Shown: one piece after another, positions 15,001 through 27,000 of the stretch
Numbering within the stretch: the first letter of the stretch is position 1
Layout of the letters: the number at the start of each line of letters is the position of its first letter
NCBI GenBank assembly: GCA_048270185.1
Contig: JBLWTJ010000001.1
Location: forward strand, 160,001 to 224,000
Length of the DNA stretch: 64,000 nucleotides
Source of the DNA: Bacteriovoracaceae bacterium
Lineage (GTDB): Bacteria > Bdellovibrionota > Bacteriovoracia > Bacteriovoracales > Bacteriovoracaceae
Direction of reading: 5' to 3'
Position numbers: made by a program

Positions 15001-18000
15001 CAAAGTGGAGAAAATAACTCGTTGAATTTATGACTTTGAGGATGTGATTTCAGAGTGTTAAAATAAGTTAAGAATTCAAAAAATTGAAAATTTTAATGCC
15101 AATATTTGTGGCCAACTAACGATTATAGACGAATATGACTTTCACTTCCAACCGATATTTAAGGATTACGGCCACCATTATTGACCTATGTTTATGCCTT
15201 TTTATCAGTTACAACTTATTAAGTAGTAAGGTTATCCTCTCAATTAGTGATGTTCTATTTAGCGATCAAAATGCGACTTTATCAATAAAGCATATTCATG
15301 TTTATCTCATCACTTATTTCTTCTATTGTTTTTATTGTGGCCTATTCTTTAGCATAACACTCGGTCAAGCAGTATGTGGTATTCGTATACAGGCCGGAAG
15401 TTTTATTCAAAAACGACTGGGGGCGATAATGCGTCTTGCCCTCATGCCACTAAGAATACTTTTTGATATCTTTTCAACTGAAGTTGAATCTAGGTGGTCG
15501 TCAAAAATTTGCGCTTCAAGGATAGTCTACCAATCCAAAGTTATCTCTTACTTAATAGCGACAATAATATGCATCATTGCTATTGGGTTAACTCCATTTA
15601 GCGCATTAATGTATAAGCAACAATTTCTTTCCAGTCAGTATTTTGATTTCGGACTTAAAACATTTGTCGAAGGAGAAATAAGTGACTTTGAATCTTTTCA
15701 AGAAATTGGTGCCAAAACACTAGGCTTTTCTAGTTTTACAAACTTATCAGATGGAAGGTTTAGTATTAGGCCAAGTTTTGAAATTCGAAAGGTTGAATCT
15801 AAGACGATATATCGGCCACTAGTTTCCATATGGGATAAACACTTATCGCTTCGTGGAATATTTAAAATATCATCACGATTTGATTTATATTCGATTATCT
15901 CAAAAACCAGAAGTGAGCTTTTCTTTTTTGATCTCTATTACCCTAAGCTGAGTAAAACTCTTGATTTATATAAGAAAGACGATGGTGACATCTTCTATTT
16001 GGATGCAAGGTCTAGTCTTGAGCTTTTTGAATTAGTATCGAATGCTTTCTTAGTTAACTACAAGACAATACCTACATTATTATTGAAAGGTCATTTTCAA
16101 TTCTTGCCATATTTACAATTAAAGCTGGCCTTAGCTGACTTACTTCAAATAACAGATGATAATTATATCGACTTCATCAAAAGTGGAGAGATGATCTTTG
16201 TTCGTAAGAAAGATTATTCTGGTGAAAATATTATCTATCGTGAGACATTCTTTAGCCTTGGTCAACTCAAACCAATTGTCTACTCAAGTATGTGGGATCG
16301 AAATATTGACAATGATAAGGCGCAAAGTGATTTTGCTAACTCACTATTTTTCAAGGCCCGTTGGGGCAAAGAAGTTGATGATCGTTACCAAACATGGGTT
16401 AAAGAAGAATTACTCAACCCTCTTATTAGCTTCGATCTTATTCAGAGCACTGATCAATCAAAAGAGTATCGTCAGAAGTTTGAGAAATACATTGTTAAGT
16501 TCTATCTTGATGATGCACGAAATGCTTTAGAAAGTGGTGAAGGAGAGTATATTAACACTGTTCGCTCTAGTCTTCAGCGATTTAACCTGGTTTTTCAACT
16601 TGCTATGAAGAAAAATGAAACCTTCTATTCAAAGGCGACAATTAAATCTTTAAATGACATCTTACTTGCTCTAAAATTAAAAGATAAGAAATTATTAGAT
16701 AAAGTAAATAAGTAAAAACTAGGATTATTATGACTCTATGGATGGCAATAGTTTACGGGATTATTCAAGGCCTAACAGAATTTCTACCTGTTTCAAGCTC
16801 TGGTCACCTGGCCCTGCTTCCATTCTTTTATGACTTTAAGGACCCAGGAATTTTCTTTGATCTGGCCATGCACGTCGGAACAGCTCTAGCTGTAGCCATT
16901 TACTTTCATAAAGAAGTACGTCGTATAGGAAAAAATGCAATCTTCTTTGTCATGCCTAATAAGAAATGTGATGATTTCACAAAGAACTTTATGATCGCGA
17001 CATTTTTTACAGGATTCTTTGCTCTACTGCTAAGGCCCGTGGCCGAGGAATATGGACGCAATGAAATCTTTATTGCTTTCAATCTTGCCTTCTTTGGTAT
17101 TCTACTATTTATCTCAGATCGCATTAGTCGAACAGATAAGACAATGGAGGGCTTTAGAGCTTCATCATCAATTGTCATTGGACTTTCTCAGGTTCTAGCA
17201 ATTTTCCCTGGGGTTTCACGCTCTGGGATTACAATTACAAGTGCACGCTTTCTCGGGCTTTCAAAAGAAGATGCTTCTTCTTTTTCATTTCTCTTGTCCC
17301 TTCCACTAATTTTTGCAGCATTCTTTTTAAAGAGTTACGGATTAATTTCTCACCCTAGTGAGATCAAGTTTGAGGTTCTAAATTGTATTGTTGGAGTTGT
17401 CGTCTCTTTTGGAGTTGGCCTTGCAACGATTCATTTCTTTATGAAGCTTATTCGTAAGATCCAATTTGGATACTTCTTAGTTTATCGCCTGATTCTAAGT
17501 GCTTTAGTCTTTTATCTTGTGAAGTGATTCTTCAATAGTAATAACAGGACTGTGGCCAAAATCATTCTTAGCAGCATTATGTTTAAAGTAGTGAGATGTT
17601 CCCATTTGTAGGGCCACAAATCGCGTCATTGGCGGTTGGCCATCGAATTTTCCAAGCAGACGATAGAACGCTTCAAAGATTGCACCTATAATATAGACCA
17701 TTCTTAATGAGACCTTCTTTCTTAGGGGGTTAACTCCCTTTGCTTCAAGGATATCATTGATGAAGTCCCATAATTTGACCGGTCTTTCTTGGCCAATAAA
17801 GTAGGCCTTACCGCTATTCTTAGCACCAGTACGTAGCTCGTTAAATGCTTTTATATGGGCAAGGGATGCGTTTTCAACATAGTTAATATCAACTATATTC
17901 TCTCCCGTACCAATGATTTTTAGACGGCCAGATTTGGCCCGGGCCACAAGAGTAGGGATGATATTCTGATCTCTTTGGCCATATATGAGGTGTGGCCTAA

Positions 18001-24000: not shown

Positions 24001-27000
24001 TCTTTAATTCCTGTGACTTCTTGGATATCTCCCATCTTTGTTCCAGTTGCATGTAGATTTACAATATCGATATCGTTAATTGAAATTCCTGCTTTCTTAA
24101 TTGCCGCGTGAACACACTCCATTTGTCGTTCTGGGTTAGGAAGAACGAAATCTGTTGCATCACTATTCATATGATAACCAACGATCTCACCGTATATTTT
24201 TGCATTACGTGCGAGGGCATCTTCTAATCTTTCAAGTGTATAAACACAGCCACCTTCTGAGATGACAATACCATTTCGATTATTATCTAGTGGGCGAGAA
24301 GCTCTTGTTTGATCTTCTGGGAAGTCTGCAAGGGCACCTTGTGCTTTAAATGAAACGTGGTTTCCAAATGAGTTAGCCGATTCTGATACTCCACCAGCAA
24401 GGGCGAGATCAACTTCACCAAGCTGTAGCATCTGGACTGCCTGAATTAGTCCCATATTTCCTGCGGCACAAGCTGCACCAATTGTGTAGTGAGGTCCTGT
24501 AATTCCTAGATTTAGTGAAACTTCTCCTGCAGGAGCGTTAGCAACTGTTCTTGGATTATGATGGTGAGTCCAAAGTGAATCATCTTCATTATTATTCTTA
24601 TAGAATTGAAATAATTCCTCTTCAGTTTCAACTGGCCCGTGCTCAGTAATACCTAGATAAATTCCGATGCGAGATTTATCGAGGTTAGCTAGCTCAAGCC
24701 CCGCATCATCAAGGGCTTCTTTAGAGCAGTAAACAGAGATCGCTCCAACACGTGTTCCACGCTTTCTCATTTTACCCTTTTGGTGTTTTCTTTCATCAAA
24801 GTCACATTTACCAACAGGGATTTGTCCTAGGAAGCGAACGTCTTCATAAGTAATTCCTGATTTTTGCTCAAGAAGAGCTGAGCGGTACTCTTTTAAGTTA
24901 TTACCATTTGGTGCTGTAAGGCCAACACCTGTAATCACAACGCGTGATAAATTCATTTACTGACTCCATTATGTTTTTCATTTTCTATTTTGCTGACGAT
25001 ATTTAGGAATGAATTCTTAAGCCCAGACTTAAGGCCACTTTTAATGTGACTAATATCAGTGAGTGAATTCTTTAAAAGCTTTGTTACCATTGGAAATTTT
25101 TCAATGGCCATATAAGGGTTATCAAGTTCTTTGCTGATTGAGATAATAAACTCACTAAGTGAGCGTGCGAAGCGTGTTGTCGTTAGGATATTTGTAATGC
25201 GCTTTTTACGTTTGTCATCATTAATATGTTTTAGCGAATCATTTGTAATATTCTCAAATTCTTCAATGATTTCTAATTCACGCTTTTTTACAATATTAGA
25301 AACTATGTTGATGGCATCATCATTTGCTTCGTGGATCTTCATACGTTTCACACTTGGGTGATCAGTTGAGATAATCATCTTATAAGTAGCAAGAGTTTTT
25401 AAAGCACTTGAGACGGCCGGTTGTGATAGGCCTAGAATTGTCTCGATCTCATCTGAAGCTAGTGGGCGTGGAGAGTAGACTAAAAGGCCAAAGACGGCCC
25501 CTTCGATTCTCTTAAATCCCACCTTAGAAAAGAAGGCTTCATAATGAGGTAGGTACTCAAGAAGCTCTGCTTCGATAATATCAGACTTTTGGTCTTTCAT
25601 TTTTTTATCATCCTTATATTTCAAATATAAAATATAAGTAATATTGGATAAGTGGTCAATATTTTTGAACATTTAATTAGACGCGGGGCAAGGTGCGAAG
25701 TGGCTTCAAATTACCATTTTGGACGAAGTGGCACCTATATTCTTTTCAAACAGTAGCATTATGATACTATTTTTGTCGGAATTATGGGAGAAAAGTTGGC
25801 ACGGAACTTGAACTAGTTTCACTATTCAAAAATTTAAATCAAGAAGATTTAATTTAGTCGAGACATCCATTGCGCTGCAGTGGTTTTTATTTACTGGGGG
25901 AGAGATTTTAATATGAAGAATTTAATCGTTTTAGCAGCTATCGCTACTTTATTTGTATCATGTGGACGTGGGGGATCATCATCTTCTTCTACTTATGGAA
26001 AGTACACATCACCTTATGTATCAGCTCAAGGATTTGTATCTGCGCTGAATTCTGTTGATCCAAGTTATTATGATTATAATACGCTAGAAAAAGACGAGTA
26101 TGATTCTTTAAGAGAGGGATTCTTTGTTTACTACGATGCAAAGTATGATGAGTTTGTAGGAGTTGATCTTACTTATCTTAGAACTCTTGCTTATTGGGAT
26201 TACTACTCAAATAATCAGGGACTAGCTGATGAGTTCCGTGATGTTCAAGCAGATGATGCTTGGTACTATGATGGTCTAATCGGTGATGGTTGGGGTGAAG
26301 ATTATGAAATCGTTGATTTTACTGGATCATACGATATCAATGGTAACCCTATCTTTGTTGGATTTGACTCTGATATGCTTTACGAAGACGAAGAGCAAAC
26401 AATGGATACAGGTCTAATGGCCGCAGACGATAGCCAACTTGAAATGTTTAATAAAGCATCTCTTTACTCACAAGCATTCAAACTACCTGCTGATAAGGCC
26501 CTATCTCTAGTAACAATGGAGAAGGAAATGGTAAGAATGCTTGAAAATGCACAAAATGGTGAATTACAAGCACAAGATGCTGAAGCAATCGCTAATAATA
26601 TCAAGCACTTTACAGGTAAGTCAGTTGATGAATTCATGGCAGCTAAGGAAGATCTTAATGCTCGTGAAAAGATCATTGATGATGTAGCTGCTCACCTAGG
26701 GACAACAACTCAAAATATTGAAGATGTTATCCTTCCAGAGCTTCTATCAATCGAAATCTAAGTATCTAATAATACTTCAAATACCACACATTAAGAGGGC
26801 CTGAATGGGCCCTTTTTTATTTGTGTATAAAGTGAACACTACGTGAATAACTTTCAAAAAGCCCCATGTGTTCATCAATTATTGCTATTTTGTCTAATAA
26901 TGAAGTCGATATTATTGATAATCCTATTCCTAAATCTTGGTCTTAATCTGGTCTTTGCAGCAGATGGCCTGGTTCCTATTAACGGTGAAAGCCTCCCGGC

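Follow-up and report, generated by a model that had tools for sequence, protein, structure and literature searches.

The window analysed here is a 64,000-nucleotide stretch of contig C1 of a Bacteriovoracaceae genome, numbered so that position 1 is contig position 160,001; genes of a second locus are given in whole-contig C1 coordinates. The window carries a minus-strand operon in the order regulator-KS-ACP-crt1-oleABCD, with gaps between genes of −17 to +56 nt. Its first gene (24953..25600, minus strand) encodes a 215-residue MarR/GbsR-like transcriptional regulator that matches MreA/CudC-type models below cut-off, and a ribosome-binding site precedes the ATG at 25600. This gene was absent from the list in an earlier survey of the genome; orthologues (29–34% identity) adjoin the module in loci L111, L112, L114, L117, L118 and L122. 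There follow, all on the minus strand, a dedicated FabF-like ketosynthase (KS; 23721..24956, 411 aa) and acyl carrier protein (ACP; 23466..23711, 81 aa), both recognised by profile matches, and a CrtI-fold flavoenzyme, crt1 (22021..23409, 462 aa; PF01593), which ends 9 nt ahead of oleA. Open reading frames and profile annotation agree with the survey's finding that oleABCD lie here with a CrtI-like oxidoreductase, an ACP and a KS. A weak sigma-70-like promoter candidate (25631..25659, minus strand; 10/12 consensus matches) is present upstream of the operon, although the promoter scan returned two sites against 1.7 expected by chance and the candidate is thus not significant alone. An Rfam scan of window positions 16000–27000 gave no matches, and the RNA evidence, one run with 6% of words and three contigs of 172–207 nt at a depth of ∼3, gave no sign of expression or habitat.

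The four ole genes are identified with differing degrees of profile support. OleA (20983..22011, minus strand, 342 aa), the putative head-to-head Claisen condensing enzyme, is a PRK09258-family protein of thiolase fold that scores 377 bits in a profile search with NF006720 (cut-off 285); its motif positions hold Glu100, Cys126 and His269, which we take to be the catalytic residues. Homologues of oleB, oleC and oleD adjoin it. The predicted beta-lactone synthetase OleC (18484..20121, minus strand, 545 aa) scores 574 bits with NF006754 (cut-off 478), and 457 and 452 bits with the Shewanella and Xanthomonas OleC models, under their cut-offs. The putative 2-alkyl-3-oxoalkanoate reductase OleD (17504..18481, minus strand, 325 aa) has two OleD models as its best matches (348 and 342 bits, under the cut-off of 580) and a YxxxK motif at 137. 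No OleB model passed its cut-off, and the OleB-like beta-lactone decarboxylase (20105..20989, minus strand, 294 aa), a haloalkane-dehalogenase-like alpha/beta hydrolase, is assigned by fold and gene position. Passages of PMC7064751 report that OleA of Halobacteriovorax marinus is active on a surrogate ester substrate in an in vivo assay.

The second locus lies 374 kb from the ole locus and comprises crt2, a second CrtI-like flavoenzyme (C1:555658-557094, 478 aa), fabG (C1:554902-555642), fabZ (C1:554489-554902) and fabI (C1:553700-554485), all on the minus strand and at the positions reported in the survey (C1:553700-557094). Two members of the same family (L117 and L118) have both loci as an unbroken 12-gene run, regulator-KS-ACP-crt1-oleABCD-crt2-fabG-fabZ-fabI, and a third locus (L110) has the same order from KS onward. 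Because the two gene sets are concatenated here in exact order, they constitute one pathway with a one-operon ancestry. All 11 genes after the regulator are found in 11 of 80 loci examined, with Desulfobulbaceae-type or Thermodesulfobacteriota titles, in keeping with the earlier claim that the cluster is intact in Desulfobulbaceae. Among the 54 of these loci that are at least 15 kb long, KS, ACP and crt1 occur together in 39 and oleA in 29 (the earlier counts were 36 and 26 of 51), and fabG is absent from 26. A search of the 80 loci for further conserved genes gave mostly antisense shadow open reading frames and lineage-specific neighbours.

Within the phylum sample, crt2 is present in all 22 genomes of the family, in two of ten genomes of one other family, and in none of the remaining 88; the earlier statement that it is missing outside the family is therefore slightly too strong. 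Every one of the 22 family genomes also has oleA, within 21 kb of crt2 in 19 of them (within 13 kb in 15) and on a different contig in the other three. An alternative is that the loci are independent in this genome, with OleABCD acting on housekeeping fatty acids as in Xanthomonas, perhaps modified by a membrane desaturase, and the additional genes serving elsewhere. The 374 kb separation, a desaturase gene in the genome, and seven genomes of the phylum that have oleA and neither dedicated supplier could be read this way. We regard it as very improbable in view of the 9 nt between crt1 and oleA in a single operon, the concatenated operon of family members, and the association of crt2 with oleA in 22/22 family genomes and 38/38 crt2-positive planctomycetes.

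The module contains the parts of a type II fatty acid synthase as discrete proteins: a KS with a Cys-His-His triad, an ACP with its carrier Ser, FabG, FabZ (His/Glu) and FabI (Tyr/Lys). The KS triad (Cys163/His302/His338) is invariant in 45 of 45 orthologues, and the protein has a Met in place of the gatekeeper Phe and is 33% identical to the housekeeping FabF. The ACP has a helix II that is almost invariant among 46 orthologues and unlike that of the housekeeping ACP (32% identity overall). The dehydratase is of FabZ type, with Glu60 in 58/58. A separate housekeeping fatty acid gene set, 29–39% identical to the module copies, is present in the genome, with fabH and fabD on contig C2, and for this reason we rejected the second locus as the housekeeping system. 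Neither locus has its own FabD, FabH or phosphopantetheinyl transferase, and no radical-SAM gene occurs among the operon genes of either. These sequence comparisons support a dedicated synthase.

The KS pocket is unusually polar and family-specific (Glu105, His106, His131-133 and Arg136), and FabZ has a bulky tunnel residue. Both could suit a product of the module and OleA-D other than a skipped C31 polyene: a polyene with conjugated bonds, a chain that is short or carries oxygen, or a natural product of the beta-lactone type; beta-lactones are also made by OleA, OleC and OleD (PMC7064751). Moreover, two genomes (G135 and G176) have the module without oleA or oleC, and in G176 it sits behind MBOAT acyltransferase genes, with MBOAT and glycosyltransferase genes in place of ole. 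We nonetheless consider another product unlikely: the retained oleB points to an olefin, the retained FabI argues against a fully conjugated chain, and two module-bearing lineages make C31:9 without a Pfa synthase (see below).

Comparison with the type I Pfa synthase, which supplies polyunsaturated chains to OleABCD elsewhere, shows a complementary distribution. In this genome the matches to PfaA are limited to FabF, FabD and the KS of the module, the best at 152 bits against a cut-off of 1010, and the best PfaD match is 23 bits against 449, consistent with the survey's report that PfaA is missing. Among 201 Planctomycetota genomes, 70 have oleA, and both the 38 with crt2 and the 30 with PfaD fall entirely within these 70; none has both, against 16 expected. 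Of 201 Desulfobacterota genomes, 21 have oleA, ten of these with crt2 and nine with PfaD, and again none has both (4.3 expected). No PfaA above cut-off was found in 50 crt2-positive genomes, while each of 19 PfaD-positive control genomes gave a match of at least 835 bits; PfaD is likewise missing from the 31 oleA-positive genomes of the organism's own phylum. Four oleA-positive genomes have neither marker: G228 has PfaA, G518 has crt1, and G327 and G292 lack OleC above cut-off. No oleA-positive genome examined, then, combines the module with a Pfa synthase. A quickly built OleA tree, with 20 of the 39 PfaD-linked OleA proteins taken in and L061 left out as partial, needs only about three label changes, so that the exclusivity reflects few independent events and Fisher p-values overstate it.

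Two organisms with characterised lipids connect the module to C31 polyenes. Desulfotalea psychrophila is a producer of C31:8 and C31:9 that reportedly has no polyketide synthase (PMC2649909); its protein CAG37135.1 is an orthologue of crt2 (52% identity). Among 120 OleA matches listed, none is named for D. psychrophila, and only a metagenome-assembled genome of a Desulfotalea sp. appears. Lacipirellula parvula makes n-C31:9 (PMC6995999). Within its family, Lacipirellulaceae, which also holds Bythopirellula polymerisocia, 69 of 71 genomes have crt2 and none of the 71 has PfaD; the link to L. parvula is thus at the family level. Module genes occur in C31:9-producing lineages without Pfa, and together with the complementary distribution in two phyla this supports a route independent of Pfa; what that route makes, and what the flavoenzymes do in it, are inferred. 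A Pfa-free anaerobic route to polyunsaturated fatty acids, based on type II fatty acid synthase and phytoene-dehydrogenase-like genes, was proposed in 2009 without a link to ole, and the same passages of PMC2649909 mention neither oleA nor head-to-head condensation. We found no description of the module in the literature searched, although Sukovich et al. 2010 and the supplements of PMC2649909 may bear on the ole link.

Both flavoenzymes have a predicted CrtI-type FAD fold with a substrate domain, an FAD-binding motif, and TM scores of 0.74–0.76 to 4rep (crt1: pLDDT 90.9; 4rep as best match, TM 0.74). Fold alignments to the CrtI family (4rep and 4dgk) show 13–19% identity, and single-sequence PDB searches gave weak matches, mostly to the FAD-binding stretch for crt2 and at best to 4rep and 4dgk for crt1. 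Scores against CrtI, CrtD and CRTISO models are at best 115 bits against 587 (TIGR02730), and 64–69 against 238 (TIGR02734); given these values, far under the cut-offs, and the acyl-ACP gene context, we rejected carotenoid biosynthesis as their role. In both, an invariant His replaces the Gly-Pro of CrtI. A third CrtI-like gene (C1:1233953-1235551) was rejected as a member of the module, with 22% identity and another context. The genome also has a gene for a membrane fatty acid desaturase.

We think it probable that the module and OleABCD form a single pathway to a polyunsaturated hydrocarbon. KS, ACP, FabG, FabZ, FabI, crt1 and crt2 would act as a private seven-gene synthase that builds a methylene-interrupted chain on its own ACP, most likely 16:4n-3, with malonyl transfer, priming and phosphopantetheinylation presumably provided by the housekeeping system. 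Assembly of 16:4 (4,7,10,13) in C2 steps would call for full reduction at C4, C10 and C16, which FabI could cover. At C6 and C12 the double bond would have to move from trans-2 to cis-3, and at C8 and C14 it would have to turn from trans-2 to cis-2. OleA would then join a pair of these chains head to head; reduction by OleD, beta-lactone formation by OleC and decarboxylation by OleB would follow, yielding a polyene of 31 carbons (C31:9 or C31:8). Both isomerisations are also required in the Pfa route as described in PMC4882568, and CRTISO, like CrtI under anaerobic conditions, carries out isomerisation when its FAD is reduced (PMC3382138). We favour crt1 and crt2 as these two isomerases, each acting with FAD in its reduced state, and the unusual KS pocket would pick the cis products; we put this form of the pathway at somewhat short of an even chance. 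That the flavoenzymes are regioselective reductases within the same pathway seems to us quite unlikely.

The same pathway and product could also arise if the flavoenzymes were oxidative desaturases acting on ACP-bound chains with a quinone or oxygen as acceptor, an idea put forward for the D. psychrophila genes in 2009. Their nearest solved folds are carotenoid desaturases (4rep and 4dgk), quinones can serve CrtI when oxygen is absent (PMC3382138), and PMC2649909 takes the carbon isotopes to speak for a desaturation of monounsaturated fatty acids. However, the crt1 profile alignment, whose register is uncertain at this low identity, skips CrtI residues 127–149, which hold R148 and D149, two of its three proposed catalytic residues (the third being R152), and the invariant His stands in both proteins where CrtI has Gly-Pro. 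A private KS, FabG, FabZ and FabI would also be less needed if desaturation followed synthesis. CrtI forms conjugated trans bonds beside existing ones and no skipped cis bonds, and overall we judge desaturation to be rather unlikely and prefer isomerisation.

The module would stand in for the type I Pfa synthase of Shewanella and Geobacter. The Pfa (pfaABCDE)-OleABCD systems of Shewanella oneidensis, Photobacterium profundum and Geobacter bemidjiensis, which make C31:9, likewise have OleABCD downstream of a dedicated, ole-linked chain supply, with the same KS, ACP, KR, DH and ER activities and probably the same product (parts of PMC6463001 and PMC4882568). In contrast, the module is built of separate type II proteins, among them a single ACP, and has neither PfaA nor PfaD; it has FabI for the PfaD reductase and FabZ for the FabA-like tandem dehydratases, and adds two CrtI-fold flavoenzymes that are absent from Pfa. 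It shares the ole order A-B-C-D and a type II acyl supply with Xanthomonas and Micrococcus, although those use the housekeeping synthase whereas here a paralogous one, with its own ACP and flavoenzymes, is co-operonic with ole. The extended clusters of D. psychrophila and anammox Kuenenia also combine type II synthase and phytoene-dehydrogenase-like genes, but as described in passages of PMC2649909, PMC4790861 and PMC10139942 they are set apart from the module, which has one intact KS and no radical-SAM gene; PMC2649909 centres on radical-SAM clusters with a non-canonical FabF. The tunnel substitution of the module FabZ differs from that of amxFabZ. Fold and FAD-binding motif are shared with CrtI, CrtD and CRTISO (4dgk and 4rep), but the neighbours here are acyl-ACP genes and not carotenoid genes.

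The C31:9 of D. psychrophila, made without a Pfa synthase, has been a puzzle since 2009, and the module, in a predatory bacterium, may be an undescribed bacterial way to polyunsaturated chains. Besides oxygen-dependent desaturases and type I Pfa, it may give bacteria a third way to methylene-interrupted polyunsaturated fatty acids, through a dissociated type II synthase with CrtI-fold acyl-ACP double-bond isomerases. Such a route would extend throughout Bacteriovoracaceae and Lacipirellulaceae, be frequent in Desulfobulbales and account for the C31:9 of many planctomycetes and sulfate reducers, and where Ole is lacking it could serve to acylate other acceptors. The candidate set is small and complete (∼11 genes, ∼11 kb) and occurs in culturable strains, making it testable by heterologous expression. 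If correct, this would be an oxygen-independent pathway of small separate enzymes whose steps can be assayed singly, unlike those of the Pfa megasynthase. It would change the reading of C31:9 as a lipid marker, offer a model for the flavoenzymes of related type in ladderane synthesis, a pathway still unsolved, and give a function to a large ‘phytoene dehydrogenase-like’ family, in which 7948 of 8000 scored candidates passed, a number that may include distant relatives. ESM Atlas clusters reached through a homologue (P0078) come from Planctomycetota, Bdellovibrionota and Verrucomicrobiota and bear only the automatic names ‘phytoene desaturase/amine oxidase’.

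Eight tightly packed genes on the minus strand run from 25600 to 17504 of the window with intergenic gaps of -17 to +56 nt, in the order regulator, KS, ACP, crt1, oleA, oleB, oleC, oleD, and uppP on the opposite strand closes the operon end. The first gene encodes a 215-aa MarR/GbsR-like regulator, KS (23721-24956) a FabF-like ketosynthase, and crt1, which follows ACP, a PF01593 flavoprotein. In profile searches OleA and OleC score above curated family cut-offs; two OleD models are the top matches of OleD, yet score under their cut-off, and OleB is assigned by fold and gene position. 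A second locus lies 374 kb away, beyond the window, at C1:553700-557094, with crt2 (C1:555658-557094), a second flavoprotein gene whose product is 24% identical to that of crt1, followed by fabG (C1:554902-555642), fabZ (C1:554489-554902) and fabI (C1:553700-554485), all on the minus strand. Every gene that the survey's finding had placed in the two loci is thus present. The housekeeping fatty acid synthesis set is separate (fabH-fabD-fabG-acpP, fabF and fabZ on C2, fabI on C1), and the module copies are just 29-39% identical to these counterparts. Model searches of this genome, which is 95.9% complete, gave neither PfaA, as had been reported, nor PfaD above cut-off.

A DUF7453-like gene (C1:557097-558248; L001:12098-13249 in the extracted crt2 locus) precedes crt2 in the same orientation, with 2 nt between them; it repeats in 11 close-relative loci, this genome included, and may be co-transcribed with crt2. 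Around the operon, the ORFs at 11721-14894 (1057 aa), 15135-16715 (526 aa), 25880-26761 (293 aa) and 26843-30016 (1057 aa) have no Pfam match, and 30013-32829 encodes a subtilase-family protein; the large ORFs and the subtilase gene appear unrelated to the operon.

The two loci are joined in other genomes. Two genomes of the same family (loci L117 and L118) carry regulator-KS-ACP-crt1-oleA-B-C-D-crt2-fabG-fabZ-fabI in a single run, an exact joining of the two loci described here, which argues for one pathway in two pieces; locus L110 has the identical order from KS onward. Both crt2 and oleA are present in all 22 family genomes, at most 21 kb apart in 19 and on separate contigs in three. A scan of GTDB genomes with crt2 confirmed 550 stretches, and the 80 best of them were taken as the locus set; these are mostly from Bacteriovoracaceae, Desulfobulbales, planctomycetes and Chloroflexota, and the nearest named crt2 relatives among them are from Halobacteriovorax (86%). 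The recount on the 54 of these loci of at least 15 kb bears out the survey's counts, with KS, ACP and crt1 in 39, fabZ in 46, fabI in 41, fabG in 28, oleA in 29 and any ole gene in 36. Eleven of the 80 hold all eleven genes, so the cluster does occur intact elsewhere, and the planctomycete occurrence likewise holds, as L111 and L112 from that phylum have the complete set plus the regulator. Chloroflexota loci, including Dehalococcoidia (L022, L025, L029), show the order oleA-KS-ACP-crt1-crt2-fabG-fabZ-fabI.

Two genomes, G176 and G135, carry the module with neither oleA nor oleC in the genome. In G176 (L107, C28:6834-19879) all seven module genes follow immediately after MBOAT-family acyltransferase genes, of which two share the module's strand and a third sits close by on the opposite one; this genome also has two additional isolated crt2 copies. 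Five genes are visible in G135 (L106, C178) up to the contig end. A convergent family-28-like glycosyltransferase gene follows the module in both, and this context suggests chain transfer to another acceptor.

We searched 201 genomes each of Planctomycetota and Desulfobacterota with crt2, an OleA family model and a PfaD model. Among the Planctomycetota, 70 have oleA, 38 crt2 and 30 PfaD; oleA accompanies every crt2 and every PfaD, no genome combines these two markers, where independence would predict 16, and two oleA-positive genomes have neither. The 131 oleA-negative genomes contain no crt2 and no PfaD. Of 21 oleA-positive Desulfobacterota, ten have crt2, nine PfaD, none both and two neither; crt2 occurs in two genomes without oleA and PfaD in six. 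When three candidates per genome were scored for PfaA in 80 genomes, none of the 50 with crt2 gave a match above cut-off, the single weak PKS match being one of 370 bits in G473, whereas all 19 PfaD-positive controls gave matches of at least 835 bits, 17 of them above cut-off. The four oleA-positive genomes with neither crt2 nor PfaD comprise one with PfaA (G228), one with an isolated crt1 (G518) and two without OleC above cut-off (G327, G292). In the phylum of the present genome PfaD was found in none of the 31 oleA-positive genomes, and seven of these also lack crt2; those seven, from two other families, may use housekeeping chains. Loci were read for three of the seven (L119-L121, from G010, G018 and G047) and hold ole genes without module, PfaA or PfaD. 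In a quick OleA tree (60 rows) the supplier label has to change about three times, and 18 of 20 Pfa-linked OleA form one clade together with that of G228. Module and PfaD thus never occur together in oleA-positive genomes of the two phyla, in support of Pfa-independence, but the exclusivity is based on few evolutionary events and p-values overstate it. In the quick tree, OleA from L022 and L025 branches with modest support as the sister group of the Pfa-linked clade.

CAG37135.1, a protein named for Desulfotalea psychrophila LSv54, aligns with crt2 over 466 residues at 52% identity; by its accession numbering it is presumably DP2406. No OleA named for this species was among the 120 matches listed. 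The parallel with Desulfotalea that the survey had drawn is upheld: available passages of PMC2649909 give C31:8 and C31:9 as 5% of its lipids, report PKS as absent from its genome, name phytoene-dehydrogenase-like genes DP1860, DP2405 and DP2406, and propose anaerobic FAS II extension with no mention of oleA. Lacipirellula parvula has n-C31:9 at 2.8% in a lipid table, and Lacipirellulaceae houses it together with Bythopirellula (PMC6995999). Of 71 genomes in the family of B. polymerisocia, 69 have crt2 and none has PfaD, and we infer a tie between the C31:9 of L. parvula and the module at family level. Gemmata obscuriglobus is another C31:9 producer (PMC3327967), and a pfa-like cluster is listed for it (PMC3098273), which fits two suppliers within the planctomycete phylum. 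In Pfa organisms OleA is predicted to condense 16:4n-3 (PMC6463001), and OleA of H. marinus acted on a surrogate ester when assayed in vivo (PMC7064751).

The module is probably an Ole-linked pathway with a polyunsaturated product. Its KS keeps Cys-His-His, and Glu105, His106, His131, His132, Asn134 and Arg136 are invariant in 45 of 45 orthologues, at positions where housekeeping FabF is mostly apolar; the gatekeeper Phe is Met in all 45. The FabZ keeps His and Glu, and its position 63 is Phe or Met in 55 of 58. From FabF and FabZ structures, these are presumably pocket positions. Helix II of the ACP is distinctive and nearly invariant. The KS His-His-His-Asn-Pro-Arg stretch is nearly invariant (its third His is kept in 42 of 45), and where FabF has apolar pocket residues there is a Glu-His pair; both could be catalytic or metal-binding, beyond selectivity.

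Predicted folds of crt1 and crt2 are of high confidence (pLDDT 90.9 and 89.8), and the nearest solved fold is the carotenoid desaturase 4rep (TM 0.74 and 0.76), with 13-19% identity to 4rep and 4dgk; both score far under CrtI-family cut-offs. That the closest folds are desaturases, and that isotope data were read in 2009 as desaturation (PMC2649909), would favour two desaturases, which we nevertheless consider unlikely. An invariant His (58 in crt1, 72 in crt2) stands at the CrtI Gly-Pro position, and the crt1 profile alignment, of uncertain register at such low identity, skips CrtI residues 127-149, including R148 and D149, proposed as catalytic (PMC3382138). The anammox homologues showed no phytoene desaturase activity (PMC4790861); the FabZ of the anammox cluster has a different substitution from that of the module (PMC10139942). 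Homology between crt1 and crt2 spans their length, and their separate sets of invariant polar residues point to two maintained functions, not redundant copies. We tentatively prefer to regard them as the two double-bond isomerases, because the module has a reductase, a dehydratase of non-isomerising type and exactly two extra enzymes of a family with members that isomerise double bonds using reduced FAD (PMC3382138); in Pfa synthase dehydratase domains are thought to perform both isomerisations (PMC4882568). Against the isomerase reading, the genome also encodes a membrane desaturase. Regioselective reductases seem improbable. To grow 16:4 (4,7,10,13) by C2 units, the trans-2 bond would have to be reduced at C4, C10 and C16, moved at C6 and C12 to give cis-3, and turned into cis-2 at C8 and C14. 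These isomerisations are uphill and would depend on a KS selective for the cis product, a selection that the odd pocket could provide; OleA-D would then yield a C31 polyene.

The ole pathway itself has been described before, and in 2009 a route without Pfa was put forward as a hypothesis for D. psychrophila (PMC2649909). A literature search by title and abstract, with most subscription papers outside its scope, found no description of the module, its oleABCD link or its exclusivity with pfa. We regard the module as an uncharacterised supply system for the known downstream pathway; should its chemistry be borne out, it would add a new pathway to PUFA. The two-locus observation is confirmed, and gene set, linkage and exclusivity support the one-pathway, Pfa-free reading. 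A separate small lipid-modification cluster at C1:1233953-1240425 (L125:7954-14426) includes the gene of another CrtI-like flavoprotein, the third in this genome (C1:1233953-1235551; 532 aa, 22% to both crt1 and crt2), adjoining an MMPL transporter gene and divergent from genes for an AurF-like di-iron protein, a probable hydrolase and a fatty-acid desaturase.
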